Positions 8,492-36,000 of a DNA stretch of 64,000 bases are shown here, piece after piece (the stretch's first letter is position 1; every line of letters starts with the position of its first letter). The stretch covers positions 1,536,001 to 1,600,000 of the forward strand of contig OZ241456.1 in NCBI GenBank assembly GCA_965200875.1, in the 5' to 3' direction. The position numbers were made by a program, and so were the translations under genes. The notes beneath the pieces were generated by a model, which saw nothing but the letters and a program-made list of their open reading frames with translations, made no database searches and was not told the DNA's origin. Source of the DNA: Bdellovibrionales bacterium (GTDB lineage Bacteria; Bdellovibrionota; Bdellovibrionia; Bdellovibrionales; UBA1609).

Positions 8492-8558
8492 AGATCATGA
8501 ATTAACTGTTCTGATGATTTTAAATTTCCAAGTTTATTTGACATTCCACAGAGCCTTG

Positions 8559-9137: not shown

Positions 9138-9267
9138 TTTCAAGATTCAAAAAACCCTTTACACTTATCGGATCAATTAATAAAAAACCAAAGAAACATT
9201 TTTCCAAACTGCGAAAAAAGAAATTTACTAGAGAACACCCTCGCTAAAAAGCTAATGGTAAAAAACT

Positions 9268-9957
9268 CTAAGCGAAAATATAGAGCGCGAAGCACAGGAC
9301 TAAAGCCAACATCAAGGCATCAAAAGCATAACTTGTCACCCAGCTTTTGAATCGGACATATAATGCTTGTCTTATTGAAAGCTTAGGAAGAGAAATTTCA
9401 TCTTCAAAAAACCATGTTAAAGATTCCATTCGCTTAATCATCTCTCTTGCTTTTCTGTTATTCTGGTTGTCTTTGAGTGCCCGCCCGTAACAGGAAATTC
9501 CATAAACCAGCTCATTTTGTTTATGGCAAGACCTCAGAAAATTATCATGAATTTTGTCATCATGCCAATTTTGAACCACTTTTGCCCATTCACCTCTCAG
9601 CTGAAAAGAAGCTCCTGCTCCTTCAATCATCTTAATAAAAACCACTCCACAATAGGAGCATTCCTGATCATTTATAGGCACTTCCTCAGTACATCTAGGG
9701 CATATTTTGGTGGAAATACCCAACCCGGAAGGCGCGGGAGTGGAATTTTTACGCATATCTGCCGGTTTGCCCAAAAGAATATTCTCTGTGTCTTTGGTAT
9801 TGATCCAAAATATTTTCTGGCAGGAGGAACATTGAAAGTCAGGCTGTTCCTCTTCAAATTCATTTGTAAAAGCTTTAAAAACCCGCAAACAATAAGGACA
9901 CCTAATACGCAAAGAAGAAGGAGTTAGAGTTTTTTGCTCTTCATAAAATTGTTTCAT
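9268..9957 (-). CDS. Double zinc-ribbon protein with C-terminal TM
   Basis: CPYC/CSSC and CPRC/CSYC pairs, hydrophobic C-terminus. Confidence 0.7.
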   Translation of the reverse strand: MKQFYEEQKTLTPSSLRIRCPYCLRVFKAFTNEFEEEQPDFQCSSCQKIFWINTKDTENILLGKPADMRKNSTPAPSGLGISTKICPRCTEEVPINDQECSYCGVVFIKMIEGAGASFQLRGEWAKVVQNWHDDKIHDNFLRSCHKQNELVYGISCYGRALKDNQNNRKAREMIKRMESLTWFFEDEISLPKLSIRQALYVRFKSWVTSYAFDALMLALVLCFALYIFA

Positions 9958-10081
9958 AATGATACTATATACAAAAAACTGATAAAATGCGAGCTTTTTA
10001 TCTTGAGCCAGCGGAAAAATGTCAGAACTTTTGAGGCAAAATTATATTTAAAACCATTTTTTGCAGTCCCGAGTCCCGAAT

Positions 10082-11797
10082 ATGAACAAAATCAAAAAAA
10101 AACTCAAATTTTATTTTCTGCCCTTATTATCCAGTATTTTAATGGGTACAAGTTATATTCCTTTTCCCTCTTGGGCTTTGTTTTTTTGCTATGTGCCTCT
10201 CTGGACTTTTGCCCTGAAACAAAAGCAAATAAAACCCTTATTAATAGGTGCGTGGCTTTGTCAGTTTATAGCCACTTTAATTGGATTCAACTGGGTGGCC
10301 TATACTGTAAGAGAATTTGGATTTTTCCCCTGGCCTCTGGCGATACTGGGCCTTCTTATTTTCGCCAGTTTCGCCAATTTACATATTCCTATTTCTCTGT
10401 TTTTCTGGTTTATTTCCCGCAAAAGACTTTTACCCCTCTACTCAGAAAATTCAAATGAAAATTTGCCGGATGATAAAGACAACAATTATGGAGATTTATC
10501 AAATTCCAAAACTGCCCAGCTAAAACAAACAAAAAAAGCTATTTTTCCTTTTTTATTCACTTTTCTCACTCTCCCCTTGTATTCCACTTTGGTTATGAAA
10601 TATTATCCCATGATTTTTGATTGGCACTTTGGTTACACTTGGTTTTACATGCGATGGCCTGCCTTTCATACTGCGGAGATATGGGGTTTTCAATTTTTAC
10701 ATACTCTGACTTTGTTCTCCAATCTGCTATTTTTATATTTCTTTTTGTGTGTCAAGAAGGCTCTTAAAACCAAGGCAGTCATTCGAGCCTGTAAGCTTCC
10801 TGTATGGATATTACTGATTTGGCTTTCTTTCTTCGCAATGCTGAATCTCTATGGGTGGTATTTAAAAAACCGTTGGCCAAAGCCAGATCAAATAGCTTCT
10901 GTTCTCCTTGTACAACCCAACATAGAAAACTTAAGCTCGCTGAGTAAAAAATTTAAAGCAGATCCAAGATCTTTCATTCTTAAAACACTGATAAAAGAAA
11001 CACGAACCGGCATTGCTCCTCAAAGAAAAATTGATTTTATTCTTTGGCCTGAAGGAGCGTATCCGTATCCTATCAAGCATGACACAAAAACAGCGAAAAA
11101 CAATCCTGCTCAAAGAAAAGCCGGAAAGTGGCAAATACCCATTGTGCTGTCTGCAATAGGACAACATAAAAAAAAGATAACCAACTCTGTTTTTGTATTT
11201 AACCAAGACGGCAGAATGATTCAAGCTCCTTATGATAAAACCCTGCTATTGGCTTTTGGTGAATATATGCCCGGTGAAAAATGGCTACCCATTAATAAAT
11301 TATTTTCCTATTATGACCGCTCCTTTACAAGAGGAACCGGGGAAAATAAAGTTGTTTTTTTAAATGGCATAAACCTGGGTTTTCAAATTTGTTATGAAGG
11401 TCTTTTTGATTTTTTTACCAGAGACTTAGTCCTGAAAAAAACACAAATTATAGTAAATGTCACAAATGACTCTTGGTACGGAAGCTGGCAGGAACCTTAT
11501 CAGCATTTATATATGACCCTCGCAAGAGCCATAGAGGTCAGACGCCCTCTTATCAGAGGAACCAACACGGGACTATCCACAGTGATCTCCGCCAAAGGGG
11601 AAATCAGTCCCATATCCACCATTAATAAAAGCTCCAGTCGGATTTATTCAGTCCCCTACTATAGCCGGGAAAAACAAACTGCTTTCACAGCATGGGGGTA
11701 TTATATTGATCAATATTTTTTATGGATTTTATTTTTTATCCTGTTATCCTTTTATATTTTGGCACATAAAAATCACCAAAAAAAAATACCTGAATAA
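10082..11797 (+). CDS. lnt: Apolipoprotein N-acyltransferase
   Basis: Multi-TM N-half; nitrilase triad motifs WPEG, YDK..L..FGEY.P, ICYE; NDSWYG. Confidence 0.93.
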   Translation: MNKIKKKLKFYFLPLLSSILMGTSYIPFPSWALFFCYVPLWTFALKQKQIKPLLIGAWLCQFIATLIGFNWVAYTVREFGFFPWPLAILGLLIFASFANLHIPISLFFWFISRKRLLPLYSENSNENLPDDKDNNYGDLSNSKTAQLKQTKKAIFPFLFTFLTLPLYSTLVMKYYPMIFDWHFGYTWFYMRWPAFHTAEIWGFQFLHTLTLFSNLLFLYFFLCVKKALKTKAVIRACKLPVWILLIWLSFFAMLNLYGWYLKNRWPKPDQIASVLLVQPNIENLSSLSKKFKADPRSFILKTLIKETRTGIAPQRKIDFILWPEGAYPYPIKHDTKTAKNNPAQRKAGKWQIPIVLSAIGQHKKKITNSVFVFNQDGRMIQAPYDKTLLLAFGEYMPGEKWLPINKLFSYYDRSFTRGTGENKVVFLNGINLGFQICYEGLFDFFTRDLVLKKTQIIVNVTNDSWYGSWQEPYQHLYMTLARAIEVRRPLIRGTNTGLSTVISAKGEISPISTINKSSSRIYSVPYYSREKQTAFTAWGYYIDQYFLWILFFILLSFYILAHKNHQKKIPE

Positions 11798-11817
11798 AAT
11801 CAGGAGGAGTCATCACT

Positions 11818-13185
11818 TTGAAACACAAAACCATAAAAAACGAACAAAATACCATCTTAAAAATGGGGACGGAGTTATTTAGTTCTCTTAAAAATCCACG
11901 AAAAAATCCACTGAACAAAAAATGGTGGTATGAAAATATTATGCAATGGACTCTCGTCAATTCCAATTTGAAAACAGCCCTTTTTCGCTTTGTGGATGTT
12001 TTTCCCTCTCTCAAAAAAAAAGCAGACATTCCTCTTTTCTTTAAAGAATACCTGAAAGCAAACAACATGCTGTCTCCTTTTTTAAGGATAGGAATCAATC
12101 TTCTACCACCTTCTTTTTTAAGCGCGCTTATTTCGAAACACACAAAGGAAATAGCCCATCTGTTTATAGCTGGAGAAGCCCCCTCAGATATTCTCCCTGT
12201 TTTGAAACAAATCAGAAAAAACAACAACGCTTTTACTATAGATCTCTTGGGGGAGGCCACTTTGTCTGAAAAGGAAGCTCAGATATATCAAAACCGCTAC
12301 ATAGCCATTATGGAACAAATGTATAAGCACAAATGGAATCACAATCCCTTGACAGACGAAGCAGAAAATGGAGAAAACCTCCCTCGCGCCAATCTTTCCC
12401 TTAAAATCACTTCATTGGAATCTCAAATTCTTACAGTCTCTTGGGAGGAAAGCAAAAAAAGACTAAAAAACAAACTTAGAGTTTTATTTCAAAAAGCCAT
12501 GGAGACAAACACTTTTATCAATATAGATATGGAACAATATCAATATAAAGTTCTTACTTTGGAAATTTTTAAAGAGCTTGTTTCAGAACCAGCGTTTAAA
12601 TCTTATCCTCATTTTGGCATTGTGATTCAAGCCTATTTAAAATCTGCTATGGATGATCTGCGCGATCTTTCCCAATTCCTTCGGAAATCAAATCACTCCA
12701 GCCCTATACATATTCGTCTGGTTAAAGGAGCCTACTGGGATTATGAGTTAATCCATAGCAGACAGAATAACTGGCCCTGTCCCGTTTATCTAAACAAGTG
12801 GGAGTCCGATATTAATTTTGAAAACTGCACAACATTTATACTTCAAAATTACCCGAGTTTGAAGCTCGCGGTGGGGTCTCACAATATCCGGTCTATAACT
12901 CACGCCTTAAACTTATCTCAACAAATGAATATTCCAAAAAAAGCGTTGGAAATTCAAACTCTTTACGGAATGGCATCTGCTATCAATACCTGTTTAAGCC
13001 AAAATGGTTGGAGAGTACGACAATATTGCCCTATAGGTGCTCCCATTCCCGGTATGGCTTATTTAGTGCGAAGGCTTTTGGAAAACACTGCCAATGAATC
13101 TTTTATTCAATCCTGGAAAAATACAAAAAATAATATTCCAGAACTGCTGAAATCACCCGCTCCACATAAGAAACATATATTGTAA
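11818..13185 (+). CDS. Proline dehydrogenase (N-terminal half of a PutA)
   Basis: LFRFVDVFP, DLLGE, DMEQ, QAYL, RLVKGAYWD, YLVRRLLEN; AGGAGGAG SD before TTG. Confidence 0.9.
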   Translation: MKHKTIKNEQNTILKMGTELFSSLKNPRKNPLNKKWWYENIMQWTLVNSNLKTALFRFVDVFPSLKKKADIPLFFKEYLKANNMLSPFLRIGINLLPPSFLSALISKHTKEIAHLFIAGEAPSDILPVLKQIRKNNNAFTIDLLGEATLSEKEAQIYQNRYIAIMEQMYKHKWNHNPLTDEAENGENLPRANLSLKITSLESQILTVSWEESKKRLKNKLRVLFQKAMETNTFINIDMEQYQYKVLTLEIFKELVSEPAFKSYPHFGIVIQAYLKSAMDDLRDLSQFLRKSNHSSPIHIRLVKGAYWDYELIHSRQNNWPCPVYLNKWESDINFENCTTFILQNYPSLKLAVGSHNIRSITHALNLSQQMNIPKKALEIQTLYGMASAINTCLSQNGWRVRQYCPIGAPIPGMAYLVRRLLENTANESFIQSWKNTKNNIPELLKSPAPHKKHIL

Positions 13186-13213
13186 AAGACTTTAACGAAT
13201 GATTGTTTAAAGA

Positions 13214-14239
13214 TTAAAAGTGCTTTGTGGGAGCTTGTTTCCATAAGTCCTCAAGGCGATAATACTCTCTTGTGTAATCATAAAAAATATGCACAGCCAA
13301 AGTGCCATAGTCCAACACAATCCACTCTCCTCTTTCCTGTCCTTCCATCTGCTGAACACCAAAAGAAAAATGTTTTTTCACCTCCTTTTGCAAATAAGAG
13401 GCCATTACTTTTGTATGTCGTGTATTCAGGCCCGAAGCCACCACTGTAAAGTCAAAAGGAAGTAGAGAAAAATCACTTAAATCAAAAGTTTTCACTCTTC
13501 GGGCTTTTTTACCCAACAAAACTTCAACACAAAATTGCACTAAATGAGATCCAGTCTTTGTATCTTTCTTCAAAGACTGTGTTTGATAAGGTACTTCTTT
13601 TCCAATCCATTGCTCCACCACTGCCGGAACCAGATGTCCAACCGACAAATTTTGAGCGGAAAGTTTACGAATTTGAGAAGAGGAAATATCCATATTCTTT
13701 AAAGAAAGGTAATGGATATTTTTTCCAGTGATAAGTTTTATTGTAGAAGAAGACGAGAACCCTCCCAACGAACAAACATACTCCTCCAAAAAAGAAGGAA
13801 TGGAAGAACTCCACTTATATCCTTTTCTGCTACAAATCACCAAATGCGTTTTTTGCAAAATGGTTTTAAAATTTTTCCATTTGTCAAACTTTACCCATTG
13901 ATCCATCCCCATGATTAAAAAAATCTCTTTAAACTCAGGAAGAGCCTTTATCAAAGCCTCTATTGTATCAACAGAGTAACTCACTCCCCCTCTTTTTATT
14001 TCCCAATCATCCACTTCCACAAAAGAATAATTTTTAAACACCTGACGAACTAAAGTTAATCGTTTTTGAGGAGACACTGCCCGAATAGGAGGAGCCAGAG
14101 GAACTCTCCCAGCCGGCACCACTTTTATCAAATCAAATTCAAATTGTTCCTGAACCTGAATCAACAAATTCAAGTGCCCCAAATGTAAAGGATTGAAGGA
14201 AGCTCCAAAAATTCCCATTTTACAGACTTTATTGTTCAT
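13214..14239 (-). CDS. nadD: Nicotinate-nucleotide adenylyltransferase fused to ribosome silencing factor RsfS
   Basis: GASFNPLHLGH and ISSSQIR (NadD); C-terminal EG...WIVLDYG.LAVHIF...REYYRLEDLW (RsfS). Confidence 0.9.
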   Translation of the reverse strand: MNNKVCKMGIFGASFNPLHLGHLNLLIQVQEQFEFDLIKVVPAGRVPLAPPIRAVSPQKRLTLVRQVFKNYSFVEVDDWEIKRGGVSYSVDTIEALIKALPEFKEIFLIMGMDQWVKFDKWKNFKTILQKTHLVICSRKGYKWSSSIPSFLEEYVCSLGGFSSSSTIKLITGKNIHYLSLKNMDISSSQIRKLSAQNLSVGHLVPAVVEQWIGKEVPYQTQSLKKDTKTGSHLVQFCVEVLLGKKARRVKTFDLSDFSLLPFDFTVVASGLNTRHTKVMASYLQKEVKKHFSFGVQQMEGQERGEWIVLDYGTLAVHIFYDYTREYYRLEDLWKQAPTKHF

Positions 14240-15287
14240 TTTCTCCTAAAAGCACATCCATCCTTTTTTTCAAAATTTCATTCCTGAAGTTTTTAAGATG
14301 ATTGGAATTATTTACAGAAAAAAAGTAAAAAATTTTCAAAAGCTCCTTATGAAAAGGCTCCACTTTTTCCAGAGAAGAAGAATTTTTTTCCCCGGACAAA
14401 AGTAAAATAGAGGGTTTTTGGGTTAAACAACTTTTATGTTTTTGATCATAAAATAAAAGCTCTTCTCTTAATTTTTGATAGGAGGTAAAAGGATTTACAT
14501 CCGTTAGAGACAAGACAAAAACAATTATTTTAGTCTTCTCCGCCTGTTTTAAAAACTTTCTGGTGGAGGGGCTTAACCCCGGCAAATCCACAAAAACGGC
14601 TGGCGCAAAATAACCAATATGTTGATCCAATGCGTGGGAGCTTTTGGTTGTGCTTTCCTTCTCCTGCCCATTCAAGTTAACGGAAAACATTCGAGGATAA
14701 GATGAGGGATAAAGTTTTTCCTTTAGACCTCCCATCTTCAGCAAAAGAGAGGTCTTTCCAGAGCCTCTAAAACCAATGAGACACACATCACTCAGCCATT
14801 TTAATTCCAGAGTTATTTTCTTTTGCAAAGCTGGCTCACCGGGCTGAGCAGATTGAGGGGCCTGCCTCCTTGAGGACTTGAAAAAACAATTTCCTCTACC
14901 CCCTTTTCCTCCCTTTAAAACACACCATTTTTTATCTGTCAGCTCTTTTAGAAACTGTCCCTTGGAATCATAACAAAATGTTCCCTTAGGCACATAAACC
15001 GTCAGGTCTTTTCCTCGCGCTCCTCTTTTCTTGTTTCCCTCTCCTTTTTTTCCATCTTCTGCTTTATAAAAAGACCGGACTGTTAAATGAGAAAAATCCT
15101 TTAGCGAGCTTTCAGGAGATAAAAACAAATCTCCTCCCCTTCCTCCATCCCCTCCATCGGGGCCGGCTCTAGGGGATCTGCGAGTTCTTTGAAAATGTAC
15201 AGATCCTCTGCCTCCACATCCAGATGAGATTTTAATTTGAATATGATCTGTAAAACCCGAATTTTTATAAGATTCAAGAGAGGGCAT
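14229..15287 (-). CDS. obgE: Obg/CgtA family protein with degenerate G-domain
   Basis: Gly-rich Obg fold ([20 protein letters not shown]); follows rplU-rpmA; G motifs divergent. Confidence 0.85.
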
Positions 15288-15531
15288 ACACACTGACTTT
15301 TTGTTTCTTCTTGCCTAAACCTTCAAACTGCACATGACCTTTAATGCGGGAATAAATGGTAAAATCCCGACCCATACCTGTTCCCGCGCCCGGATAAAAA
15401 CAAGTACCCCTTTGCCGAACAAGGATAGTCCCCGGAAGAACAGTCTGCCCGGAAAACCGCTTGACACCCAACCTTTTACTTTGAGAGTCCCGACCGTTTC
15501 TCGTACTGCCAGACGCTTTTTTGGAAGCCAT
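15274..15531 (-). CDS. rpmA: 50S ribosomal protein L27
   Basis: [31 protein letters not shown]. Confidence 0.97.
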
Positions 15532-15534
15532 ATT

Positions 15535-15954
15535 TTATTTCTCCTGATGATTTTCTGTTATCTTTTTTTGCACCGGCTTTGATGAGGCGGTTTTTAAAGT
15601 TTCCTTCTTCCGTACCGGTGATTTTATATTTTCTCCCTGAGGAGTTAAAAAAGACTCTATGTAAATTTCTGTAAATGCCTGACGATGCCCCTGAGTTTTA
15701 CGGTAACCTTTTCGCCTGTTTTTCTTAAAAACTAAAACTTTTTTGCTTTTTCCGTGCCGAACCACCCGACCTCTGATTTCCGCTTTTTCCACATAAGGAG
15801 AACCTGTTACAAAAGAACCGTTTTCATGCCGAAAGGCCAACACCTGCTTTGACTTCCATTCCATACCTGATTCCAATTTTACCTGTTCTATTTTGATAAA
15901 CTGACCCGGCCAGGTACGATATTGATGCGAACCATTTTGTATTATTGCATACAT
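15535..15954 (-). CDS. rplU: 50S ribosomal protein L21 with basic C-terminal extension
   Basis: MYAIIQNGSHQY, RRKGYRKTQGHRQ.FT. Confidence 0.95.
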   Translation of the reverse strand: MYAIIQNGSHQYRTWPGQFIKIEQVKLESGMEWKSKQVLAFRHENGSFVTGSPYVEKAEIRGRVVRHGKSKKVLVFKKNRRKGYRKTQGHRQAFTEIYIESFLTPQGENIKSPVRKKETLKTASSKPVQKKITENHQEK

Positions 15955-16189
15955 AAAAAACACCTTAATTCAAAATTCAGAGAAAAGTGTATCTGAGTTT
16001 TCTTAAAACTTAACTCTCGAATGATTTTTTTTTAAAGAAACTTCTCTTTGGTAGAGATAATAAATTCAGCAGATGTTTGTCAATAAATTTATCATTCATC
16101 AGTTTAAAAGCTTCGAACAATGTTTAAGCCCAGATGAACCCCACATAAAAAAATGCCTCAAAAACCCACAAAAAAACAACCCCCAGTGC

Positions 16190-17569
16190 TTATTTTTCTA
16201 TCCAACCTCTTCCATCACAATGAAAACAAGGCTCACACATTGTTTCCAACAAGGAAGAGTGAACTCTTTTTCGAGTAAGTTGTGCTATAGCCAACTCCGA
16301 CATATTAACAAGATCAGTGGGAACACGGTCTTTTTTAAGCTCCTGAGACAAAACCTCCATGACTTTTTGCCGGGAAGACTCTGTTTCCATATCAATAAAA
16401 TCAATAATAATGATTCCTCCACAGTTCCTGAGGCGAAGTTGAAGAGCTATTTCCCTAGCTGCCTCTTGGTTAATTTTTAAAATATTTTCCTCCGGCATTT
16501 TTCTGCCCATGAAACTTCCTGTATTCACATCCACAACAACCGCTGCTTCCGTTTCCTCAATAACAATACCCCCTCCTGACCTAAGCTTTATTTTTTTATG
16601 TAACAATCGCCTCACTGCCGACTCTAAATCATATTTATCAAACAAAGAGGTTTTTTTATTATTATAAAAAGAGATTTTATTCCTGTATTGTGGCATTGTT
16701 TCACTGGTAAAATCCTTCAGATCCAAAAACATTTGTTTCTCATCCACCAACACTTTGTCCACTTCCTCTGTTAAAAAATCCCTTAATATTTTACAGGAAA
16801 AAGACATATCAGACCAAATAAGCCCAGGGGACTTCCGCGCTTTATATCTTCTCTGAATACCTTTCCAGGTTCTTTGCAAGTTGTCCCAATCCCTTTTCAG
16901 CTCCTCTTCACTGACTTCCGCCGCTTTCGTGCGGATAATAAGAGAGGCATTCTTATTCCATCGCTCCACCCACTGAACAAGCTTTTCCTTCATATTTTCA
17001 TCTTCAATTTTTCTGGAAACTGCAATATGAAAAGGAGAGTTTGGAAGATAAACTAGATAAAACCCTGGCAGGCTGATTTTATCGCTTACACGAAGGTTTT
17101 TGCCTTTTAGAGAATCTTTGATCACCTGAACCATAATATGCTGACCGGTTCTTAATTGCTTTAAAATGCTGGTTTGAACGCCTTTTGTATTTCTCCCACG
17201 AACCACATGCTCCGTTGAACTCTCTGAAAAGCTCTCTGAAAAAGTCGCTCTTTGGAGTTCAGATTCCCAAAAATCAGAATTATCCGCATTTTTAGCCCTA
17301 TTTTGAGCATATTGACTTTCCTCGGATGGATTTTTATAAATTTTCCGGCCTGTATGAAAAAAAGCGGACTTGTTAGAACCAACATTTACAAAGCAAGCGT
17401 CTAAACTGGGTTGTTTTTTAACCACTTGAGCTTTAAACACAGCACCCACTTGGAAAGGTTTGGAACGATTTTCTAGGTGAAAATCAGAAAAAACACCTTC
17501 CCTTAGCTGAGCAATACGAATACGAGATCTTTGCACATTAATTAAAATAAGATTTTTCCCAGAACTCAT
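16190..17569 (-). CDS. Ribonuclease E/G family
   Basis: S1-like region, VDVNTG, QLRLRNCGGIIIIDFIDM, TRKR, Zn-link CFHCDG. Confidence 0.9.
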   Translation of the reverse strand: MSSGKNLILINVQRSRIRIAQLREGVFSDFHLENRSKPFQVGAVFKAQVVKKQPSLDACFVNVGSNKSAFFHTGRKIYKNPSEESQYAQNRAKNADNSDFWESELQRATFSESFSESSTEHVVRGRNTKGVQTSILKQLRTGQHIMVQVIKDSLKGKNLRVSDKISLPGFYLVYLPNSPFHIAVSRKIEDENMKEKLVQWVERWNKNASLIIRTKAAEVSEEELKRDWDNLQRTWKGIQRRYKARKSPGLIWSDMSFSCKILRDFLTEEVDKVLVDEKQMFLDLKDFTSETMPQYRNKISFYNNKKTSLFDKYDLESAVRRLLHKKIKLRSGGGIVIEETEAAVVVDVNTGSFMGRKMPEENILKINQEAAREIALQLRLRNCGGIIIIDFIDMETESSRQKVMEVLSQELKKDRVPTDLVNMSELAIAQLTRKRVHSSLLETMCEPCFHCDGRGWIEK

Positions 17570-17720
17570 TTCCTCTCTTCCATTTTTTACCCGGATGGCT
17601 TTTATTTGTAAGAAATCTCACATTCGCCATTTCTTTGCCAGAAAAAACAGCATTAAAAAATATAAAAATCTTTTGGTTTTTTCACAAATTTCCAAGTATT
17701 ATACATCGGAAGGAGTTTTT

Positions 17721-19352
17721 TTGAAAAATAAAATAAATAATGCGTCCTCGCAACCTTTTGAAAAAAAATCAAAGCCTCAGGAAAAAGCCCAAAACTCTTT
17801 TTCTCCAATCCATCAAAAGTTAATGGAATTAAGAGAAAAAAACAAACAAGCGATAACCGGAGAAGGGGAGGAAAAAATACAGAAACAAAAAGCTGGGGGG
17901 AGATTAACAGCCAGAGAGCGGATTAATCTTTTACTTGACCCGGGAAGCTTCAAAGAACTGGATCGTTTTGTTCTCCATCGTTGCACTTATTTTGATATGG
18001 AAAAAAAATCTGTTCCCGGTGACGGAGTACTTACAGGATACGGAAGAATTAATGGAAAAAAAGTTTTTGTTTACAGCCAGGATTTTACCGTTTTTGGGGG
18101 AAGCATGTCCCGCACGCAAGCGGATAAAATTTTAAAAGTAATGGATTTAGCCCTCAAAACCGGAGCACCACTTATCGGTCTCAAGGACTCTGGAGGGGCG
18201 CGGATTCAGGAAGGAGTGCTGGCTTTAGGGGGTTATGGAGACATTATGTTTAAAAATGTACGCCTATCCGGTGTGATTCCTCAAATAAGTGCTATTATGG
18301 GACCTTGCGCAGGAGGAGCTGTCTATTCTCCGGCTTTATCTGATTTTATTTTTATGGTGGAAAATTCCAGTTATATGTTTCTAACCGGACCGGATGTGAT
18401 TAAAGCCGTTACCCATGAAGAGATCAGCAAAGAAGATCTAGGAGGCTCAAAAACCCACACTGAAAAATCAGGCATAGCTCATTTTTCCTGCCAAAATGAT
18501 AAACAATGTTTAATGATGATCAGAACTCTTTTAAATTTCCTTCCCGGAAATAATTTGGACGACCCCCCTCGCCAAGATTCAAAAGACCCAGTGGAAAGAC
18601 GCTCGGAAGTGTTAAATCAGCTCATTCCCGATCAAGCCAAAAAACCCTATAATATGAAAGTATTGATCAAGGAAATCGTGGATGACTCCTTTTTCTTGGA
18701 ATTAAAGGAAAATTACGCGACAAATATTATTACCGGTTTTGCCCGTTTAAATGGTTACAGTGTAGGTATTGTGGCTAATCAACCACAAGTGCTGGCGGGC
18801 TGTATCAACATTTCTGCCAGCCAAAAAGCCGCCCGGTTTATTCGTTTTTGTGATTGTTTCAATATCCCCATCATAAGTTTTGTGGATGTGCCAGGTTTTT
18901 TACCCGGCACCGATCAGGAACACGGAGCTGTAATTGCTCACGGAGCCAAATTGCTTTATGCTTATGCTGAAGCACGTGTTCCAAAAATCACTCTTATTAC
19001 ACGAAAAGCTTACGGAGGGGCTTATATTGTTATGGGATCCAAACACTTGGGCGGTGATATTAATTTTGCTTATCCAGGTTCGGAAATTGCTGTCATGGGT
19101 GCAGAAGGGGCCGTTAATGTTATCTTTCGAAAACAAATAAAGTCTGCAAAAGATCCAGCACTTAAAAGAGAAAAACTTACAAAAGAATACGAAACTATTT
19201 TCAACAATCCCTACAGAGCGGCAGAGTTAGCTTATATTGATGCCATTATTGAACCTTCTCATACAAGAGAGCACATAGCGGGAGCCTTGGAGCTTTTACA
19301 AAATAAAAGGGAAAAAATCCCTGAGAAAAAACATGGTAACATTCCCTTATAA
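17721..19352 (+). CDS. Acyl-CoA (propionyl-CoA-type) carboxylase carboxyltransferase subunit
   Basis: LTARERI..LLD.GSF.E, DSGGARIQEG, GPCAGG, DVPGFLPG, KKHGNIPL. TTG start with AGGAG SD; start uncertain. Confidence 0.92.
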   Translation: MKNKINNASSQPFEKKSKPQEKAQNSFSPIHQKLMELREKNKQAITGEGEEKIQKQKAGGRLTARERINLLLDPGSFKELDRFVLHRCTYFDMEKKSVPGDGVLTGYGRINGKKVFVYSQDFTVFGGSMSRTQADKILKVMDLALKTGAPLIGLKDSGGARIQEGVLALGGYGDIMFKNVRLSGVIPQISAIMGPCAGGAVYSPALSDFIFMVENSSYMFLTGPDVIKAVTHEEISKEDLGGSKTHTEKSGIAHFSCQNDKQCLMMIRTLLNFLPGNNLDDPPRQDSKDPVERRSEVLNQLIPDQAKKPYNMKVLIKEIVDDSFFLELKENYATNIITGFARLNGYSVGIVANQPQVLAGCINISASQKAARFIRFCDCFNIPIISFVDVPGFLPGTDQEHGAVIAHGAKLLYAYAEARVPKITLITRKAYGGAYIVMGSKHLGGDINFAYPGSEIAVMGAEGAVNVIFRKQIKSAKDPALKREKLTKEYETIFNNPYRAAELAYIDAIIEPSHTREHIAGALELLQNKREKIPEKKHGNIPL

Positions 19353-19394
19353 TTTTCAGCTGATTTAAAGTAAAAAGGAGTATTTTTCGTTAAA

Positions 19395-20888
19395 ATGTTT
19401 AAAAAAATATTGATTGCCAATCGGGGAGAAATTGCTGTTCGGGTGATCCGCGCCTGTTCGGAACTGGGAATCAAAACCGTGGCTGTATATTCAGAAGCAG
19501 ACAGAAATAGCCTGCATGTTATGCTGGCCAGCGAAGCCTATCCTATAGGGCCGGCAGAAAGTGCTCTTTCCTACCTCAATATTGATAAAATCATTCAGAC
19601 AGCCTTAAAAGCCAAAGCTGAGGCCCTTCACCCAGGCTATGGTTTTTTAAGCGAAAGTCCCGATTTTGCCAGAGCTTCAGAAAAAGCAGGTATTCATTTT
19701 ATTGGACCTAAAGCAGAAGTGATCCAAAAAATGGGAGATAAAATCCAGGCCAGAAAACTCATGAAATCTTTTGGAGTTCCTATCCCACCAGGAGCGGATC
19801 ATCCCTTAAAAAATGCAGAAGAGGCCAAAGCCATAGCAGAAAAAATAGGTTATCCCGTTATGCTCAAAGCCAGTGCCGGAGGAGGAGGTAAAGGTATCCG
19901 AAGTGTTTATAGCGCAAAAGAAATGTCAAAAGCCTTTAAAGCCTGCCAGCTTGAGGCAAAAAATTTCTTTAAAGATGAAAATGTTTTTATCGAAAAACTC
20001 ATACAAAACCCCAAACACATAGAAGTTCAGGTACTGGCCGATACTCATGGAAACACCTTGCACCTTTTTGAAAGGGAATGTTCTGTCCAACGGAGACACC
20101 AAAAACTCATTGAAGAATCTCCCAGTCCCAATTTGCCAAGAGAAATCAGAAAAAAAATATGTGAATTGACAGTAACTGCCACAAAAAAAATAGGTTATAC
20201 CAATGCTGGCACTTTTGAATTTATTTACGACAGCGAAGAGCAAAAGTTTTACTTCTTGGAAATGAACACTCGACTTCAGGTGGAGCATCCCGTAACAGAG
20301 CTTATCACAGGAGTGGATATCGTGAAGGAGCAAATTTTCATTACCGCAGGCCATGAACTGAAAATAAAACAAAAAGACATTCAGCAAAAAGGCCATGCTA
20401 TTGAACTCAGAATCTGCGCGGAGGATCCTAAAACTTTTCTTCCAAGCCCCGGAAGAATCCGGCGGTGTCGCATCCCTCAAGGGCCTTTCGTACGGGTGGA
20501 TGGCTACTGCTACATGGGATATAAAGTTCCCATTCACTATGATCCCATGCTGGCTAAATTGATATGCTGGGGAAAAGACCGTGAAGATTGCATCAATAAA
20601 CTCCAAAGAGCCTTGGCAGAAATTTCTCTCACAGGTATTAAAACCAATGTGGATCTGCATAAAAATATTTTACTGCACAAACATTTTTTAGATGGCACTT
20701 ACACCAATAACTTTATAGCTGAAGAAATCACCGGAAAAAATCGAAAAGAATTTTCCAGTTTTGTGGATGAAAGAGTTTTTCTTATCGCCTCTGCGATCAC
20801 CGCCTACAGACAAAACAAAAACAAACCAATGATAAATGGTAAAAGTCGGTGGAAAGATAAAGCGCGCCGGGAAAGTTTGAGGTCCTGA
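19395..20888 (+). CDS. accC: Biotin carboxylase
   Basis: KKILIANRGEIA, HPGYGFLSE, ERECSVQRRHQK, EMNTRLQVEHPVTE. Confidence 0.95.
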   Translation: MFKKILIANRGEIAVRVIRACSELGIKTVAVYSEADRNSLHVMLASEAYPIGPAESALSYLNIDKIIQTALKAKAEALHPGYGFLSESPDFARASEKAGIHFIGPKAEVIQKMGDKIQARKLMKSFGVPIPPGADHPLKNAEEAKAIAEKIGYPVMLKASAGGGGKGIRSVYSAKEMSKAFKACQLEAKNFFKDENVFIEKLIQNPKHIEVQVLADTHGNTLHLFERECSVQRRHQKLIEESPSPNLPREIRKKICELTVTATKKIGYTNAGTFEFIYDSEEQKFYFLEMNTRLQVEHPVTELITGVDIVKEQIFITAGHELKIKQKDIQQKGHAIELRICAEDPKTFLPSPGRIRRCRIPQGPFVRVDGYCYMGYKVPIHYDPMLAKLICWGKDREDCINKLQRALAEISLTGIKTNVDLHKNILLHKHFLDGTYTNNFIAEEITGKNRKEFSSFVDERVFLIASAITAYRQNKNKPMINGKSRWKDKARRESLRS

Positions 20889-21427
20889 TGCTTTTTATCA
20901 CCCGGATGGATAACAAACAATATGAAATTGAAGTACAGGAAAATGCCACAGAGTGGCAGGTCTGTTTAACCGAAACAAAAACAGAGAAAAAAGAAATACA
21001 CCGTTTATCCAAAAAGGACTATCAACGAGTGGGAGAGGTGATCAGTTTTATTTTTAATCATCGATCCTATCTGATTGATATAGTTACTGAAGGGGATGAT
21101 TACACAGTTTTCACAAAAGGTTCTCATAAAACCATTCAACTTCTCACAGAAGAAAGAATGCTATACAATGAACTGGCTTTTTCGAACCCGGAAAAAAATG
21201 AAACTCTTATTAAATCAGGAATACCTGGAAAAGTGGTGGAAATACCGGTAAAAACAGGAGATGAAGTCAAAGAAGGGGACTTGCTTTTGGTGATTGAAGC
21301 CATGAAAATGGAAAATGAAATTCGGGCAAGTGGACAGGGAAGAGTTAAAAAAATTTATGTGAAAAGCCGGCAAAATGTGGAAACAGGTGCTCGTCTTCTT
21401 TCCCTTGAAAAAACTAAAGAAGTGTGA
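20888..21427 (+). CDS. Biotin carboxyl carrier protein
   Basis: EAMKMENE biotinylation motif; overlaps accC stop (TGATG). Confidence 0.92.
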   Translation: MLFITRMDNKQYEIEVQENATEWQVCLTETKTEKKEIHRLSKKDYQRVGEVISFIFNHRSYLIDIVTEGDDYTVFTKGSHKTIQLLTEERMLYNELAFSNPEKNETLIKSGIPGKVVEIPVKTGDEVKEGDLLLVIEAMKMENEIRASGQGRVKKIYVKSRQNVETGARLLSLEKTKEV

Positions 21428-21475
21428 ATTTTAGGTGACCGGTATTATATCCGAAGTTTTTTTAATCCCTATTCT

Positions 21476-23068
21476 TCAATCTTCAAAAAGATGAGGGGAA
21501 AAACCTCTGCGCACAGTGTTTTCCGTGATCACTCTTGGGTTCATAAATTGAGTGAGGTAATCCGGTCCGCCAGCTTTGTGGCCCAATCCAGACATTTTAA
21601 ATCCACCAAAGGGGTGTCGTTTTACAATAGCTCCCGTGCAATTTCTGTTGATGTACAGGTTACCCACCTGAAATCTCTTTTTAATTTTTTCAATCCGCTC
21701 GGGACTGCGTGAATAAAAAGCACCAGTAAGAGCAAATTCTGTGTTATTAGCTGTATCAATAGCCTCATCCAAATCTGTAAAAGGAATCAGAACAAGAACA
21801 GGTCCAAATATTTCCTCCTTTAGCAAAGGAGAGTTAGCAGGCACATTGTTAAATATAACCGGACTGATGAAATGTCCCTCTCCGGGAAGAGATTTTTCTT
21901 TTGAAACAACAGAGGCGGTTTTTTTACCATCTTTAATATAGCGGGTGATTTTTTGAAAGGCTTTAATATCCACCACAGGGCCTATACGATTTTCCGGTTT
22001 TTCCGCCGGACCTATCATCATACTTTCCAAAGCGTCAGCCAATCTTTCTGTAAAGGATTTTTCAATGGTTTTTGCCAAAAGCACCCGACTGCAAGCAGAA
22101 CACTTTTGCCCCTGAAAACCAAAAGCGGACTCCAACACTCCAGAAACAGCCATATCTAAATCAGCACTTTCATCCACAATGATAGCGTTTTTCCCACCCA
22201 TTTCTACAACACATTTCTTGAGTTTGTTTCGTCTGCTGGAAACCTGGTTGGCTTTTTCCAAAATGGCACACCCCACTTCTTTGGATCCGGTGAAAGCAAT
22301 CATTTCCGTTTCTTCCTGCTTTACTAGGTAAGCTCCTGTTTCCTCTCCTGTTCCTGGCAAAAACTGTGCAACCCCTAAAGGCAATCCGCATTCCATTAAA
22401 AGCTTTATTAACTCGTATGCGACAGCAGAACTTTGCTCCGCAGGTTTTATGAGGGTTGTGTTTCCTGTTACAAGACTGGCCACTACCATACCGGTTAAAA
22501 TCGCCAAGGGGAAATTCCAAGGAGCGATAACTAAAGAAAGTCCTCGTGCTTGATAGGAATAAAAACTTTCTTCTCCCAGTATGGAATCAGTGAGCTGTGG
22601 TTTTTCCCGTTTAAGCATTTCTTCCGCATAGTATCGGCAAAAATCAATGGCTTCACAAACATCGGCATCCGCGGATGGCCAGTTTTTTCCTACTTCCAAA
22701 GTTTGTAAAGCAGACAGGCTATAGCGGTGATCTTCCATTTTGTCAGCCAGAGAAGTGAGGAGATGGCATCTTTTTTCAACAGGCGTTTGGTTCCAGAGAG
22801 GAAATTGTTTTAGCGCGCCGGCAATAGCTTGATCACAGGCTGTTTTGTCCGCTTGGGATACAACAGCCACTGTCTTTGAAGGATAAGAAGGATTTTCTCT
22901 TTTAAAAGTTTTGGAGCTTGTAATTTGTTTATTATCAATAACAAGTGGCACACTCAAAGGCAATTTGGTTTGCCATTTCTCAATGGCTTTTTGAAACTTC
23001 CAGCGGTTATCAGAAATGGAAAAATCCAAAGGAGCAGTGTTTTTAAAGGATGGCTTAAAAGGTTTCAT
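21476..23068 (-). CDS. Glutamate-5-semialdehyde / P5C dehydrogenase (C-terminal half of a PutA)
   Basis: EAIDFCRYY, PWNFPLAI, FTGS, EMGGKN, GQKCSA, EEIFGP; PutA-type tail ENTVRRGF. Confidence 0.93.
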   Translation of the reverse strand: MKPFKPSFKNTAPLDFSISDNRWKFQKAIEKWQTKLPLSVPLVIDNKQITSSKTFKRENPSYPSKTVAVVSQADKTACDQAIAGALKQFPLWNQTPVEKRCHLLTSLADKMEDHRYSLSALQTLEVGKNWPSADADVCEAIDFCRYYAEEMLKREKPQLTDSILGEESFYSYQARGLSLVIAPWNFPLAILTGMVVASLVTGNTTLIKPAEQSSAVAYELIKLLMECGLPLGVAQFLPGTGEETGAYLVKQEETEMIAFTGSKEVGCAILEKANQVSSRRNKLKKCVVEMGGKNAIIVDESADLDMAVSGVLESAFGFQGQKCSACSRVLLAKTIEKSFTERLADALESMMIGPAEKPENRIGPVVDIKAFQKITRYIKDGKKTASVVSKEKSLPGEGHFISPVIFNNVPANSPLLKEEIFGPVLVLIPFTDLDEAIDTANNTEFALTGAFYSRSPERIEKIKKRFQVGNLYINRNCTGAIVKRHPFGGFKMSGLGHKAGGPDYLTQFMNPRVITENTVRRGFSPHLFED

Positions 23069-23254
23069 TATAATCAGTGACTATTCAGTCGAGCGGGAAA
23101 AAGTTTTTAAAACATTGTTATTATTTGATTTTTTTATAAAAGATTCAAAAAATAATGGCAAGGAAAACTATTAAAAACCTTTTTTTCATAAAATACTTGC
23201 CAAAATATATTTTAAGGTTATTATGGATGCCACTGGAAAAAGGAGTATTGAAAT

Positions 23255-23506
23255 ATGGTGGTTATTCGCCTTTCTCGTTATGGCATGAAACACAAGCCGA
23301 GGTATCGCGTGACAGTTGCAGATTCTCGCCGTAGTGCTACAGGGCGTTTTATTGAAATAATAGGCCAATACAATGTTTTTGAGAAAGATAAAAAAAAAGC
23401 TTTGCAAGTGGATATTGAAAAATATAAAAAATGGGTGGCAAAGGGTGCTCAACCCAGCAAAACATTGCGTTCTTTGGTAAAAAAAGTGTATGAATACGAA
23501 AACTGA
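23255..23506 (+). CDS. rpsP: 30S ribosomal protein S16
   Basis: MVVIRLSR.G.K..P.YR..VADSR, GAQPS; AGGAG SD. Confidence 0.97.
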   Translation: MVVIRLSRYGMKHKPRYRVTVADSRRSATGRFIEIIGQYNVFEKDKKKALQVDIEKYKKWVAKGAQPSKTLRSLVKKVYEYEN

Positions 23507-23535
23507 TAATTAACTATATAATGTGAGGTGTGAAT

Positions 23536-23787
23536 ATGGAAACAACAATTGTTGAGATTATTGAAATGCTGATTAAAGCTTTGGTGGATGAACCGGATCA
23601 GGTTCGAGTAACAGAAAGTAAAGGTGAAAAAACCACTGTTTTCGAAGCCAGCGTATCCAAAAAAGATATGGGTAAAGTGATTGGCCGAAATGGCAGAACT
23701 ATTGAGTCCTTAAGAACTATTGTGGGTGCTTGTGGGGCTAAAAGAAAACAAAGATGTATTTTTCAGATCATTGATGAAGAAAACTAA
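23536..23787 (+). CDS. khpA: KH-domain RNA-binding protein
   Basis: LVDEPD, DMGKVIGRNGRT; located between rpsP and rimM. Confidence 0.9.
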   Translation: METTIVEIIEMLIKALVDEPDQVRVTESKGEKTTVFEASVSKKDMGKVIGRNGRTIESLRTIVGACGAKRKQRCIFQIIDEEN

Positions 23788-23850
23788 AAATGAGAGTCCC
23801 TCCAAGCGGTTACTGTTCCCGCTCCTGCCTTCGTGAGGACAGGTTGAAGG

Positions 23851-24456
23851 ATGTATTATCCAGCATTTTTCTTACCAGAGGAGTATAATTCCATTGTCAA
23901 TAAAAGTGAATCTGACTTTCTGGAAGTGGGTAAAGTCACCCACGCACACGGGATAAAAGGAGAAGTTTTTATCTCTCTTTTTTCTGGTTTTCCTTTAAAT
24001 TCATCTGTAAATATAGTGGACCAAGTGGTGCAGTTCAGGAGAAGCACTGAACTATGTCTTGAAACAACAGTGCAGGAGGCGCGTTCGCATAAGAAAGGGA
24101 TAATAGCTCGTTTAAAAGGCGTGGAGGAAAGACAGAAAGCAGAGACTTTAAAAGGAGCTTGTTTTTTTGTGCCAAAGAAGATTTTTTCCTCTTTAAGTGG
24201 AGAAAATATATATCTTTGCGAAATATTAAACTTTGAGGTTTATGATAAAAAGCATGGCACTTTAGGAAAAATATCCTCTTTTTCTGATAATGGAGCACAG
24301 GATTTATTGATCGTGCAGAGTAAAAAAGGAAATCTTCAACAGGTTTCCCGGTTGGTGGAAATTCCCTTCATTAAAGAATTTATTGTTGATATTGATTTTG
24401 AATCAAAGAGGATATGTGTAGATCTGCATGAAAACTGGCCAGGGCTGGAATATTAA
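23851..24456 (+). CDS. rimM: Ribosome maturation factor RimM (start uncertain)
   Basis: VGKV..AHGIKGEV, GAQDLL, IPF. Confidence 0.92.
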   Translation: MYYPAFFLPEEYNSIVNKSESDFLEVGKVTHAHGIKGEVFISLFSGFPLNSSVNIVDQVVQFRRSTELCLETTVQEARSHKKGIIARLKGVEERQKAETLKGACFFVPKKIFSSLSGENIYLCEILNFEVYDKKHGTLGKISSFSDNGAQDLLIVQSKKGNLQQVSRLVEIPFIKEFIVDIDFESKRICVDLHENWPGLEY

Positions 24457-24475
24457 AAAAACAGGTATAAATTTG

Positions 24476-25231
24476 ATGCAAAAAGATCAGAGTTTTTTAC
24501 TGTGTGCCAACTGGAAAATGAATAAAGATCCGGATTCAGTACGACAGTATATTCGTCAAATAAGAAAAATGGTGTCTGTACAAGAGCAAAAAAACTTTGT
24601 TTTTTTTGCTCCTGCTTTTACTCTTTCTGTTTTGGCGGAAGAATTGGCAGATTCCGCTTTTGGATATGGAGCGCAAAATTGTCACTTTGAAGATAAAGGA
24701 GCTTTTACAGGAGAAAACTCTCCCTTGGTTTTAGCACAAATGGGGGCGACCCATTGTCTTGTGGGCCATAGTGAAAGAAGACAATTTTTTTTTGAAAGTG
24801 AAAAGGTTATTCATAAAAAAGTATCAGCCATTTTGAAAAATTCCCTTCAACCAGTAATCTGTGTCGGAGAAACAGCAGAAGAACGTAAAAACGGAAAATC
24901 ATTTAATGTGATTGAAAGGCAATTATCTGATATTTTAAAGAATGTGAAGTTTTCAAATTATATCTTTATCGCTTATGAACCAGTTTGGGCTATTGGAAGC
25001 GGGAAATCAGCGCGGACTGAACAAATTGCTGATATGCAAACACATATTCGAAAGCTTTGTGATTCATCAGGGCAAAAAACAAGATTTTTATATGGAGGCA
25101 GTGTCAATCAGGAGAATATGAAAGAACTTTTACAAATACCCGGATTGGATGGCTTTTTAGTAGGAGGTGCTTCTTTAGATCCAAAAACTTTTTTTAACTT
25201 ATCACTGTTTAAGGTTAAAAATGGAATTTAA
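24476..25231 (+). CDS. tpiA: Triosephosphate isomerase
   Basis: NWKMN, GAFTGE, GHSERR, AYEPVWAIG, YGGSV, LVGGASL. Confidence 0.96.
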   Translation: MQKDQSFLLCANWKMNKDPDSVRQYIRQIRKMVSVQEQKNFVFFAPAFTLSVLAEELADSAFGYGAQNCHFEDKGAFTGENSPLVLAQMGATHCLVGHSERRQFFFESEKVIHKKVSAILKNSLQPVICVGETAEERKNGKSFNVIERQLSDILKNVKFSNYIFIAYEPVWAIGSGKSARTEQIADMQTHIRKLCDSSGQKTRFLYGGSVNQENMKELLQIPGLDGFLVGGASLDPKTFFNLSLFKVKNGI

Positions 25232-27134
25232 TAATATTCTTCCCCAAAAAACACTTTTTATCGTATTTACCATCATCATTTGTTATTTTCTGTTTATCAC
25301 TTGCGTGGGGCTTTATTTTTCCCGCTTCAGCTCCAATATCAATGATTTTTTCTTCAGTGGTCAAAGATTTTCTTGGTGGCTTCCCGCATTCAGTATGGTA
25401 GCCACGGGAATCGGCTCTTACAGTTATTTAAAGTACTCCCAGCAGGGTTTTAATACCGGTATGAGTAGCACAATGGTGTACATGAATGAGTGGATAGCAC
25501 TACCCATATTTGTTTTTGCTTGGCTTCCGGTGTTATATTACAATCGCATTAAATCTGTCCCGGAATATTTTGAAAAAAGATTCAACCGCACAGCCCGGTA
25601 TGTGGCAGTGGTCCTAATTTTATCCTATATTTTTTACTATATTGGTTACAATCTTTATACGATCGGCCTAGCTTTACATGGCTTGTTTGGTTTTCCTCCC
25701 ATTTACACAGTTCCCTTGGTTACTTTTATTCTGGGTTTTTATGTCACCTTTGGAGGGCAAACAGCAGTTATTTTGACAGATTTGTTTCAAGGTTTGATGC
25801 TTTACCTGACAGGGTTTTTGGTGATGGGTTTTGGCATTTATGCTCTAGGGGGTATAGGAGAGTTTTGGACTCACCTACCTTTAAGTCACCGCCTTCCTTT
25901 TGCCTCCATGAATGCAAATCCTCATTTTAATTCTGTGGGAGTATTTTGGGGAGACGCTTTAGTGGGAAGTGCAGCTTTTTTATTTATGCACCAAGGAATA
26001 TTAATGCGATTTCTGGCCACCAGAAGTATCAAACAGGCCCGCATGACTGCCTTGTTTAATATTCTTGTCTGTTTACCTCTTTCTGCTATTACCGTGGGAG
26101 GGGCTGGCTGGATTGCCAAAGCCATTATTACAAAGCAGGAAAAAATTGGTTCTGCTTTGCCAGGCCATGAAGTTTTAAATGTCAACGAAACTTATAATAT
26201 TTTTATCAATGTGGCTTTTGAAGTTTTAAAACAATATGAAATACTTTTGGGTTTGGTAATAGCGGCTTTACTCGCGGCTCTTATGTCTACAGTAGATACC
26301 CTTATCAACGCATCTGCAGCTATAGGAGTATATGATATTTACAAGCCCTTGGTGCGTCCCAAGGAAAGTGAAAAACACTACCTTAAAGTGGCACGTCTAG
26401 CTTCAATTTTTGTAATTGGTATCAGTTTACTGCTGGTGATTTGGTTTTTTCGCCAAGAGGGAACTTTAATGTCCATTCACTACAAAGGAATTATGACTAT
26501 TATCCCGCCCGTGGTAACTACAATTTTTATAGCTTTGTTTTGGCCCCGCTTTAATGCTTTTTCAGCTATTTTAGCAATGCTTGTCGGTGGAACAGCCACA
26601 GTTTTGACAGGAATATTCCCGGAACCCGTTATACACTTAAGAGAGTTTTTTCTGGGTGCCAAATCAGGGGACCCTATTTATTTCCGTGCGGTTTTTGGAG
26701 TGATTTTAACAACTGTTATTGGTGTGATCACTTGTTTGCTCAGCTCTTCATCCAATGACACCAAAAGCTTAAACCGAATAAGCGGTTTAACAGCGAATAC
26801 ACTGGACAAAGCTATGTATTTTTTTAAAGGAGGAAAACCCAACTTAAAACAAGGCAAAAAAGCAAAAAAACTTACACTGTCTTCGAACATCCAGCTGAAT
26901 AAGGGAGAAATTCTTATTTCCAAAAAGGTCTCTGATATTTTAAAGGCTGACTTAGGAGATAGAATATATGTGTCTGATAATCGTTGGTGGTTGGGTGGCA
27001 TCCGATCCGGACATTTTGTTTTAAAGGGCTTGCATAGCAATAAAAATGAGGACTTGGTTTTTATTTCTGAGGAAAGTGTGAAGAGGGCTTATATGATCCC
27101 TGAGAAAAAAGTATTCCTAGAAAAAATTATCTGA
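25221..27134 (+). CDS. Sodium:solute symporter with C-terminal soluble extension
   Basis: Multi-TM; EYFEKRF, GGQTAVILTDLFQ, AALMSTVD. Confidence 0.9.
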   Translation: MEFNNILPQKTLFIVFTIIICYFLFITCVGLYFSRFSSNINDFFFSGQRFSWWLPAFSMVATGIGSYSYLKYSQQGFNTGMSSTMVYMNEWIALPIFVFAWLPVLYYNRIKSVPEYFEKRFNRTARYVAVVLILSYIFYYIGYNLYTIGLALHGLFGFPPIYTVPLVTFILGFYVTFGGQTAVILTDLFQGLMLYLTGFLVMGFGIYALGGIGEFWTHLPLSHRLPFASMNANPHFNSVGVFWGDALVGSAAFLFMHQGILMRFLATRSIKQARMTALFNILVCLPLSAITVGGAGWIAKAIITKQEKIGSALPGHEVLNVNETYNIFINVAFEVLKQYEILLGLVIAALLAALMSTVDTLINASAAIGVYDIYKPLVRPKESEKHYLKVARLASIFVIGISLLLVIWFFRQEGTLMSIHYKGIMTIIPPVVTTIFIALFWPRFNAFSAILAMLVGGTATVLTGIFPEPVIHLREFFLGAKSGDPIYFRAVFGVILTTVIGVITCLLSSSSNDTKSLNRISGLTANTLDKAMYFFKGGKPNLKQGKKAKKLTLSSNIQLNKGEILISKKVSDILKADLGDRIYVSDNRWWLGGIRSGHFVLKGLHSNKNEDLVFISEESVKRAYMIPEKKVFLEKII

Positions 27135-27170
27135 AACACATCTCTCCCTTGAAATCCACTTGGCAAATTT

Positions 27171-35751: not shown

Positions 35752-35872
35752 ATCGTCTGTGAAAAAGGTTTTTTATATGTACAGCTTATTGCTCATACCT
35801 CACCGCTCGGTCTCAAACATGCGTTTTGCCACACACGCGTCTTTCAGTCGCGGTGGGTATGAGCAATAAGCT
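35752..35872 (+). repeat. MITE-like end G followed by a long inverted repeat
   Basis: ATCGTCTGTGAAAAAGG, then AGCTTATTGCTCATACC...GGTATGAGCAATAAGCT (17-bp perfect stem plus 6 bp after a bulge). Confidence 0.7.
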
Positions 35873-36000
35873 TTTTACCTCTTTCATTTTACAAGAAAAC
35901 AAAAAGTTCGTTATAAAACCTTGCAATTATTTCCCCTGAAAATTATAAAAAAATCAAATAATAGTAATAGGTTAAAAGCTTTATCACAGGCTTCTATATA

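Follow-up and report, generated by a model that had tools for sequence, protein, structure and literature searches.

The window analysed here comprises 64,000 nucleotides of DNA from a Bdellovibrionales bacterium (assembly GCA_965200875.1, contig OZ241456.1, positions 1,536,001-1,600,000 of the forward strand; GTDB lineage Bdellovibrionota; Bdellovibrionia; Bdellovibrionales; UBA1609), which is labelled G000 in the comparisons below. It carries a type A PutA, an enzyme of proline catabolism, as two separate genes, one for the proline dehydrogenase (PRODH) half and one for the pyrroline-5-carboxylate (P5C) dehydrogenase (P5CDH) half. It is probable that a fused PutA underwent a single fission at its linker in the ancestor of G000, the related genome G009 and their close relatives, that both halves have been kept by selection and run proline catabolism, and that the gene order was shuffled later. 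Coordinates are window positions, position 1 being the first letter of the window.

Each half resembles the corresponding part of a fused enzyme. The best Protein Data Bank (PDB) match of both is entry 5UR2 (984 aa), which we take to be the type A PutA of Bdellovibrio bacteriovorus. PRODH matches its residues 6-449 (E 1e-129) and P5CDH its residues 459-981 (E 3e-167), so that the two halves together cover the fused enzyme minus about 10 linker residues. Neither reading frame has an internal stop. The family scan finds PutA_N (residues 12-96) and Pro_dh in PRODH, and Aldedh in P5CDH. The PutA_N match (PF18083; 70.9 bits, cut-off 25) identifies the N-terminal arm and alpha domain of a type A PutA, and in agreement with this type neither half carries a ribbon-helix-helix (RHH) domain or an additional C-terminal domain. 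The arm and alpha domain of PRODH are followed by the FAD barrel with helix α5a, helix α8 with its Y-x-x-R-R motif, and a short linker stub; an alternative ATG start at 11863, as in P0003, gives a protein of 440 aa. Helix α5a, described as PutA-specific (PMC5293562), is found after strand β5 as KGAYWDYELIHSRQNNWP, aligned with 5UR2, 4NM9 and the fused relatives; its location is our own mapping, the definition of the feature being that of the same paper. Entry 4NM9 is the type A PutA of Geobacter sulfurreducens (PMC6017737). The PRODH catalytic residues Y415, R418 and R419 and the gate glutamate E146 are invariant in the alignment, as are N185, E289 and C323 of P5CDH, which are assigned through Asn658, Glu758 and Cys792 of BjPutA (PMC12041015). 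P5CDH also has the PutA-type C-terminal tail ENTVRRGF. The initial annotation was thus right in describing a PutA in two intact genes.

Neither half can be placed among the monofunctional enzymes. Against the Thermus-type model NF045947 PRODH scores 89 bits (cut-off 500), which together with its length and its PutA_N domain sets it outside that class; monofunctional PRODHs are about 310-330 aa long, match it weakly (E 1e-14) and lack the α5a that the G000 protein has. P5CDH scores 598.7 against TIGR01237 (cut-off 659.65) and 593.7 against PRK03137 (cut-off 648). In the PDB search with P5CDH, PutA chains outscore monofunctional chains, and the alignment of monofunctional P5CDHs stops at about residue 517, without the RRGF tail. 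The length and alpha domain of PRODH and the tail of P5CDH are thus features of fused PutAs, as had been noted from the sequence. Pairs of monofunctional enzymes, such as those of Thermus thermophilus and Mycobacterium tuberculosis (PruB/PruA), are like the G000 pair in having one gene per step. The likeness to the type A PutAs 5UR2 and 4NM9 extends from end to end (arm and alpha domain, barrel with α5a, P5CDH with oligomerization tail), but instead of one polypeptide of about 1000 aa G000 has two, encoded by unlinked and oppositely oriented genes with contig-bridged junctions, and no covalent linker. The pair therefore falls neither among the PutAs nor among the monofunctional enzymes. No second PRODH and no second close P5CDH turned up in the genome (1.87 Mb).

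The ancestry of the halves can be seen from the relatives. Among 15 genomes of the genus, 11 have a fused PutA, two (G000 and G009) a split one and two (G010 and G011) no match. The fused frames are 977-1181 aa long, with an N-terminal break in G012, whose putA (L035:12656-15740) loses its frame after about 80 codons owing to a sequencing error or damage to the gene. In G009 the two genes are 177 kb apart on opposite strands, with PRODH on the minus strand at 1.253 Mb and P5CDH on the plus strand at 1.075 Mb. Protein searches add two more split pairs, P0004/P0124 (86/87% identical) and P0005/P0125 (G009-like). The PRODHs of G000, P0004, G009 and P0005 form one clade within the fused relatives, with a support of 100/100 in one tree and 100/99 in a second. 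The matching P5CDH clade (97/99; an earlier tree was a quick version only) has the same inner topology and also lies within the fused relatives. Neither half groups with monofunctional lineages. Nesting of both halves among fused members of the genus supports the first proposal, that a fused type A PutA was split naturally at the linker, and not an import of monofunctional enzymes. The split is old and common to sister species: PRODH ends 38-44 residues past the RRLLEN motif in both G000 and G009, and the new P5CDH start, MKP(F/L)(K/N)P(S/P)FKN, is common to them.

Other stand-alone halves of the genus (P0006/P0007 with P0126, P0009/P0245, P0128/P0129, and P0008, possibly truncated at the end of its contig) lie outside that clade, in a part of the tree with poor resolution. 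A single origin of all of them is not rejected by the approximately unbiased (AU) test (p 0.40 for P5CDH, and 0.43 for PRODH with P0008 left out; both trees leave out G017, G020 and G031), so the genus would have had between one and about three fissions. Within the order as a whole, 337 of 384 genomes have a match; 133 of the 150 matches listed, counted by hand, are open over at least 900 aa, and another 187 matches lie outside these 150. Three of the shorter frames were inspected, the other 12 below 900 aa being left out: those of G368 and G175 extend to the ends of their contigs, and that of G225 has a stop inside P5CDH and not at the linker. A scan of 151 loci for their fusion state gave 116 fused genes, 15 cut by locus ends and 8 early stops, the remaining 12 having been dropped for strand by the script.

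The initial annotation ascribed the split to an inversion of about 9.9 kb and pointed to a 9/10 inverted match at its breakpoints. The match is present exactly as claimed, and the computed crossover in it produces no in-frame PRODH-P5CDH fusion, also as claimed. The suggestion that it might be due to chance holds for inverted 10-mers of any composition, 9/10 matches being found in 107 of 295 random pairs of 100-nt segments from the window, but less well for one with at least 7 G+C, found in 10 of 1494 pairs by a criterion chosen after the match had been seen. It is therefore a fair possibility, though less likely than not, that the flip is real but secondary, an adjacent split pair having been separated later by an inversion at the 10-nt match in the G000 lineage. 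The uncommonness of the G+C-rich match is in accord with such an event, as is the position of the halves on opposite strands only 8.3 kb apart in a genome that has been shuffled by blocks of few genes. Furthermore, the PRODH frame read across the match stops at a TGA (23076-23074) 5 nt before the P5CDH ATG, and the similarity to G009 fades at arm 1. The longest contigs of P0004 and P0124, 13,543 nt each, would fit either layout. The block from nadD to the biotin carrier (BCCP) gene, however, must have moved in beforehand; in relatives it is far from putA or on a separate contig. Neither of the predicted pre-inversion junctions is seen: putA is next to BCCP in 0 of the 12 other genus genomes that have putA, and nadD-rsfS is beside rpsP in 0 of 14, some of the gene pairs in these counts being on different contigs. 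In addition, arm 2 belongs to a 73-copy repeat, similarity is also lost at arm 1 in fused relatives because the linker starts there, and an HKK before the stop is present in G000 and G009 beyond arm 1, although the DNA aligns poorly there.

The 9.9-kb inversion is very unlikely to have been what broke the fused gene. The gene orientation in G000 is compatible with one inversion, and the halves are on opposite strands in G009 too. Nevertheless, P5CDH of G009 is followed by the same two genes as putA in the fused genomes G007 and G012, and in G000 these genes lie at C1:974-977 kb. As G009 is split while retaining the ancestral 3' neighbours, with PRODH far away, the common ancestor was split without having the G000 layout. 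Moreover, the flip yields no in-frame gene, and two separate fissions with an identical new start would be required. The causal role of the inversion is thus largely refuted by G009. Gene order is common to G000 and G009 only in blocks of few genes. In both of these genomes lnt (10061-11797, + in the window) lies directly 5' of PRODH, and two genes intervene between lnt and putA in the fused genomes G002, G004 and G006.

An AT-rich intergenic repeat of about 130 bp lies between the divergent P5CDH and rpsP genes. It gives 73 nhmmer hits across the G000 genome, including a further copy at about 35860-36045 of the window, and many copies are present in G009. It has no match in Rfam, and its fold z score is -1.67. 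The repeat was considered as a cause of the fission and rejected, as it is absent at the PRODH end and upstream of the G009 P5CDH; possibly it is a driver or a scar of the gene-order shuffling. A sigma70-like site within the copy beside P5CDH (23148-23120, -; 9/12, a consensus match only) is directed at that gene.

Both halves are without lesions, as had been stated, and both are under purifying selection. Between G000 and G009 dN/dS is 0.13-0.16 for PRODH and 0.09-0.11 for P5CDH, with dS near saturation; six neighbouring genes give 0.09-0.32, and the values of the halves are within that range and like those of fused pairs. The frames have remained open over about 25% amino-acid divergence. 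Twelve of 14 strain variants in the contig comparison are synonymous, the 14 being those listed inside PRODH plus those of runs X3 and X4 inside P5CDH, with 113 rows outside that listing. P5CDH departs from the genus at 3-5 of 209 invariant sites, against 2-18 in fused members. Helices α5a and α8, the 770s helix, the C-terminal tail and the tunnel flap are all retained. That the halves are relics, decaying towards eventual loss as the genome of a symbiont shrinks, is made highly improbable by the maintained frames, the neighbour-like dN/dS and the invariant catalytic residues. Part of the genus can do without the pathway, as Pro_dh has no match in the reduced genomes G010 (94% complete) and G011 (93%); the search was also negative in the reduced genome G016 (the three being 93-94% complete). 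The N-terminal frame break in G012 would likewise be compatible with decay.

A misassembly or a switchable inversion, for which a metagenome assembly with a dispersed repeat at one junction gives some occasion, is hardly credible, for other assemblies and other species show this split too, and a separate contig set tiles both junctions. The contigs of run X1, which may be the source sample of the assembly, tile 8017-27393 in five overlapping pieces with 0 differences, the pieces at the junctions covering 8017-19040, 19016-20897, 20870-22655 and 22626-23766. An X3 contig from a separate study bridges 22482-23199, including the P5CDH start, with 4 differences, and nine loose letters of X3 at 13165 read as a one-codon length variant and not as a flipped junction. 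P0123, from another assembly, is a stand-alone P5CDH 99% identical to that of the window. The contigs of all four runs compared list no fused or flipped joint; because contigs drop rare variants, this does not disprove a rare switch. The segment is also unlike an invertible phase-variable one, as the arms are not kept in G009, there is no in-frame state, and a single orientation is seen in 4/4 runs. The split is thus real and fixed.

The preferred course of events, a single fission followed by shuffling, can be described in some detail. The fused PutA would have broken once at the interdomain linker, so that PRODH acquired a new stop codon and P5CDH began at a new Met. The likely route, tentative as to the order of its steps, is a stop and a restart in a lengthened, unconstrained linker, followed by separation of the genes. 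The linker, taken from RRLLEN to the DF motif, measures 47-56 aa in 17 genomes from elsewhere in the order but 46-191 aa among 10 fused members of the genus, and repeats occur in some of these; that of P0127 has internal Met residues. Such a long linker would be an easy place for a stop and a restart, and in another lineage (L101) a split pair is adjacent and overlapping. Later shuffling would have brought the halves to 9.9 kb apart in G000 and to their more distant positions in G009. The fused PutAs of G002 (L048:10314-13844) and G008 (L046:9947-13099) have long repeat-rich linkers, and each gives a two-part P5CDH match, suggestive of another insertion near residue 278.

The pair would convert proline through P5C and glutamate semialdehyde (GSAL) to glutamate, PRODH performing the FAD- and quinone-linked step and P5CDH, most likely a domain-swapped dimer, the NAD+ step. 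The two sites of type A PutA are described as lying about 42 Å apart, connected by a tunnel that is bordered by α5a and the 770s helix and covered by the oligomerization domain of the partner protomer (PMC5786444). Of the ways in which the halves may cooperate, the one favoured, though at somewhat less than even odds, is a transient, non-covalent association through the preserved tunnel surfaces, with leaky channelling. Free diffusion of the intermediate between them comes close behind, and a stable PutA-like heterotetramer seems improbable. Channelling has been reported between the unfused mycobacterial PruB and PruA (PMC10537722). Neither G000 nor G009 yielded a proC gene (there are matches in 7 of 15 genus genomes, none of them exceeding the cut-off); released P5C would thus have no obvious competing sink. 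On the same ground the idea that the split serves a proline-P5C cycle was rejected, and ornithine aminotransferase as a feeder of free P5CDH was rejected because none of the 15 genus genomes has a match over the cut-off.

Several points weigh against this interpretation: 1) The split clade has changed 6-8 of 21 genus-invariant sites in the arm and alpha domain as against 2-3 of 116 in the barrel, and fused members have changed 0-3 of 21-24 arm and alpha sites (G012 0/6), a pattern noticed post hoc in four related sequences. 2) Position 309 of P5CDH, in the tunnel-bordering 770s helix, is Ala in 10/10 fused genus members and Glu or Ser in 7/7 stand-alone ones, again noticed post hoc and among kin sequences. 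3) Separate transcription units oppose a 1:1 stoichiometry. Both groups of substitutions fit a loss of the PRODH-P5CDH interface. Glu at position 309 occurs in 4 of 235 fused PutAs and in the monofunctional 1UZB and 3QAN, and the fused 5UR2 has Asp there.

Stand-alone PRODHs with PutA_N and Pro_dh are also found in the Planctomycetaceae (P0051, P0057, P0058, P0247, P0248 and kin), for example in Thalassoglobus polymorphus (QDT33224.1), T. neptunius (TWT56789.1) and Planctomicrobium sp. SH668 (WP_437185810.1). They are 460-474 aa long and end 39-47 residues past RRLLEN. Thirteen clusters of them make up one clade (SH-aLRT 97), placed among fused PutAs of planctomycetes, in a quick tree that used 40 fused hits, and six fused planctomycete sequences nest among the stand-alone ones, a possible re-fusion. 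Cultured members of the family, Thalassoglobus and Planctomicrobium among them, have such proteins of 469-474 aa, some of them encoded on complete or multi-megabase contigs. Fission at this point of the linker thus recurs. The planctomycete proteins differ from the G000 pair in their separate origin in another phylum and in being known here from proteins alone. Relaxation of the arm and alpha domain was considered as a general sign of fission and rejected, as these 13 PRODHs show changes at 0-1 of 39 sites. No paper on them was found in the literature searched. Breaks at or near the linker were also seen at single loci of other lineages: PRODH ends at the linker with an overlapping stop/start pair in L101:244-2257 and with a 900-nt gap in L075:3531-7249, its stop is at the linker with no partner in view in L119:4213-5536, and the frame changes within the linker in L160:1742-4766.

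PutA is a standard model both for substrate channelling and for the Rosetta Stone idea, in which fused enzymes indicate interacting unfused ones. Earlier unfused comparators (Thermus, Mycobacterium) belong to distant families without the PutA tunnel elements. As fused and split forms here are 61-77% identical within one genus, the value of the covalent link, and which surfaces change upon its loss, can be asked directly; the split is a natural test of whether the internal tunnel needs the link. Candidate sites are residues 31, 33, 39, 41, 108 and 109 of the arm and alpha domain and P5CDH 309, and the cultured Planctomycetaceae are an apparent second, tractable case. A broader proposal, that PutA has repeatedly been split at its linker (in the genus at least once, perhaps up to three times, and separately in the Planctomycetaceae) and that the freed halves, made from unlinked genes, come together non-covalently as a PutA-like channelling complex, is rather unlikely in full. 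If true, it would amount to a third architecture of proline catabolism, with a tunnel independent of gene fusion. That gene fission is an already known process limits the surprise. No description of a split PutA was found in the literature searched, a weak negative, as the search missed the main PutA structure papers and reviews.

Positions of the split PutA genes and associated features in the window
Feature	Position	Strand	Remarks
PRODH	11818-13185	+	455 aa from TTG, ends ELLKSPAPHKKHIL; stand-alone half of type A PutA
P5CDH (GSAL dehydrogenase)	21476-23068	-	530 aa, starts MKPFKPSFKNTAPLDF, ends ENTVRRGFSPHLFED; begins at a new Met within the former linker
Arm 1 of 9/10 inverted match	13156-13165	+	coding (PAP); not kept in G009
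Arm 2 of 9/10 inverted match	23088-23097	+	left edge of dispersed repeat; absent upstream of G009 P5CDH
Intervening housekeeping block	13214-21427		nadD-rsfS fusion, obgE, rpmA, rplU, RNase G (-); carboxyl transferase, biotin carboxylase, biotin carrier (+)
Dispersed repeat copy	23080-23195		between divergent P5CDH and rpsP

In the intervening block rpmA and rplU are named from sequence, without a family scan. The nadD and rsfS genes are fused into one 341-aa frame (13214-14239, -), and they form one open frame in 15/15 genus genomes.

Sponge metagenomes are among the runs that hold the window DNA; no RNA dataset is among the runs listed as doing so. As sponge symbionts are described among Bdellovibrionota with reduced genomes (PMC9944714), G000 is probably sponge-associated like them. 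The 80 loci kept from the metagenome scan include no close relatives of the split locus.

Elsewhere in the window, a 1760-aa protein (1303-6585, +) combines an AAA_14/DUF4143 ATPase, which matches PADLOC PDC-S01, with TPR repeats and a TPR-GreAB-C-PIN-type PIN domain. An IetA-like ATPase (7478-8491, +; PADLOC E 5e-145) would be expected to have its partner protease directly after it, and no large open reading frame is present at that place. A pair with ResIII and N6/N4 methylase domains, like those of type III restriction-modification systems, occupies 54446-60393 (-).

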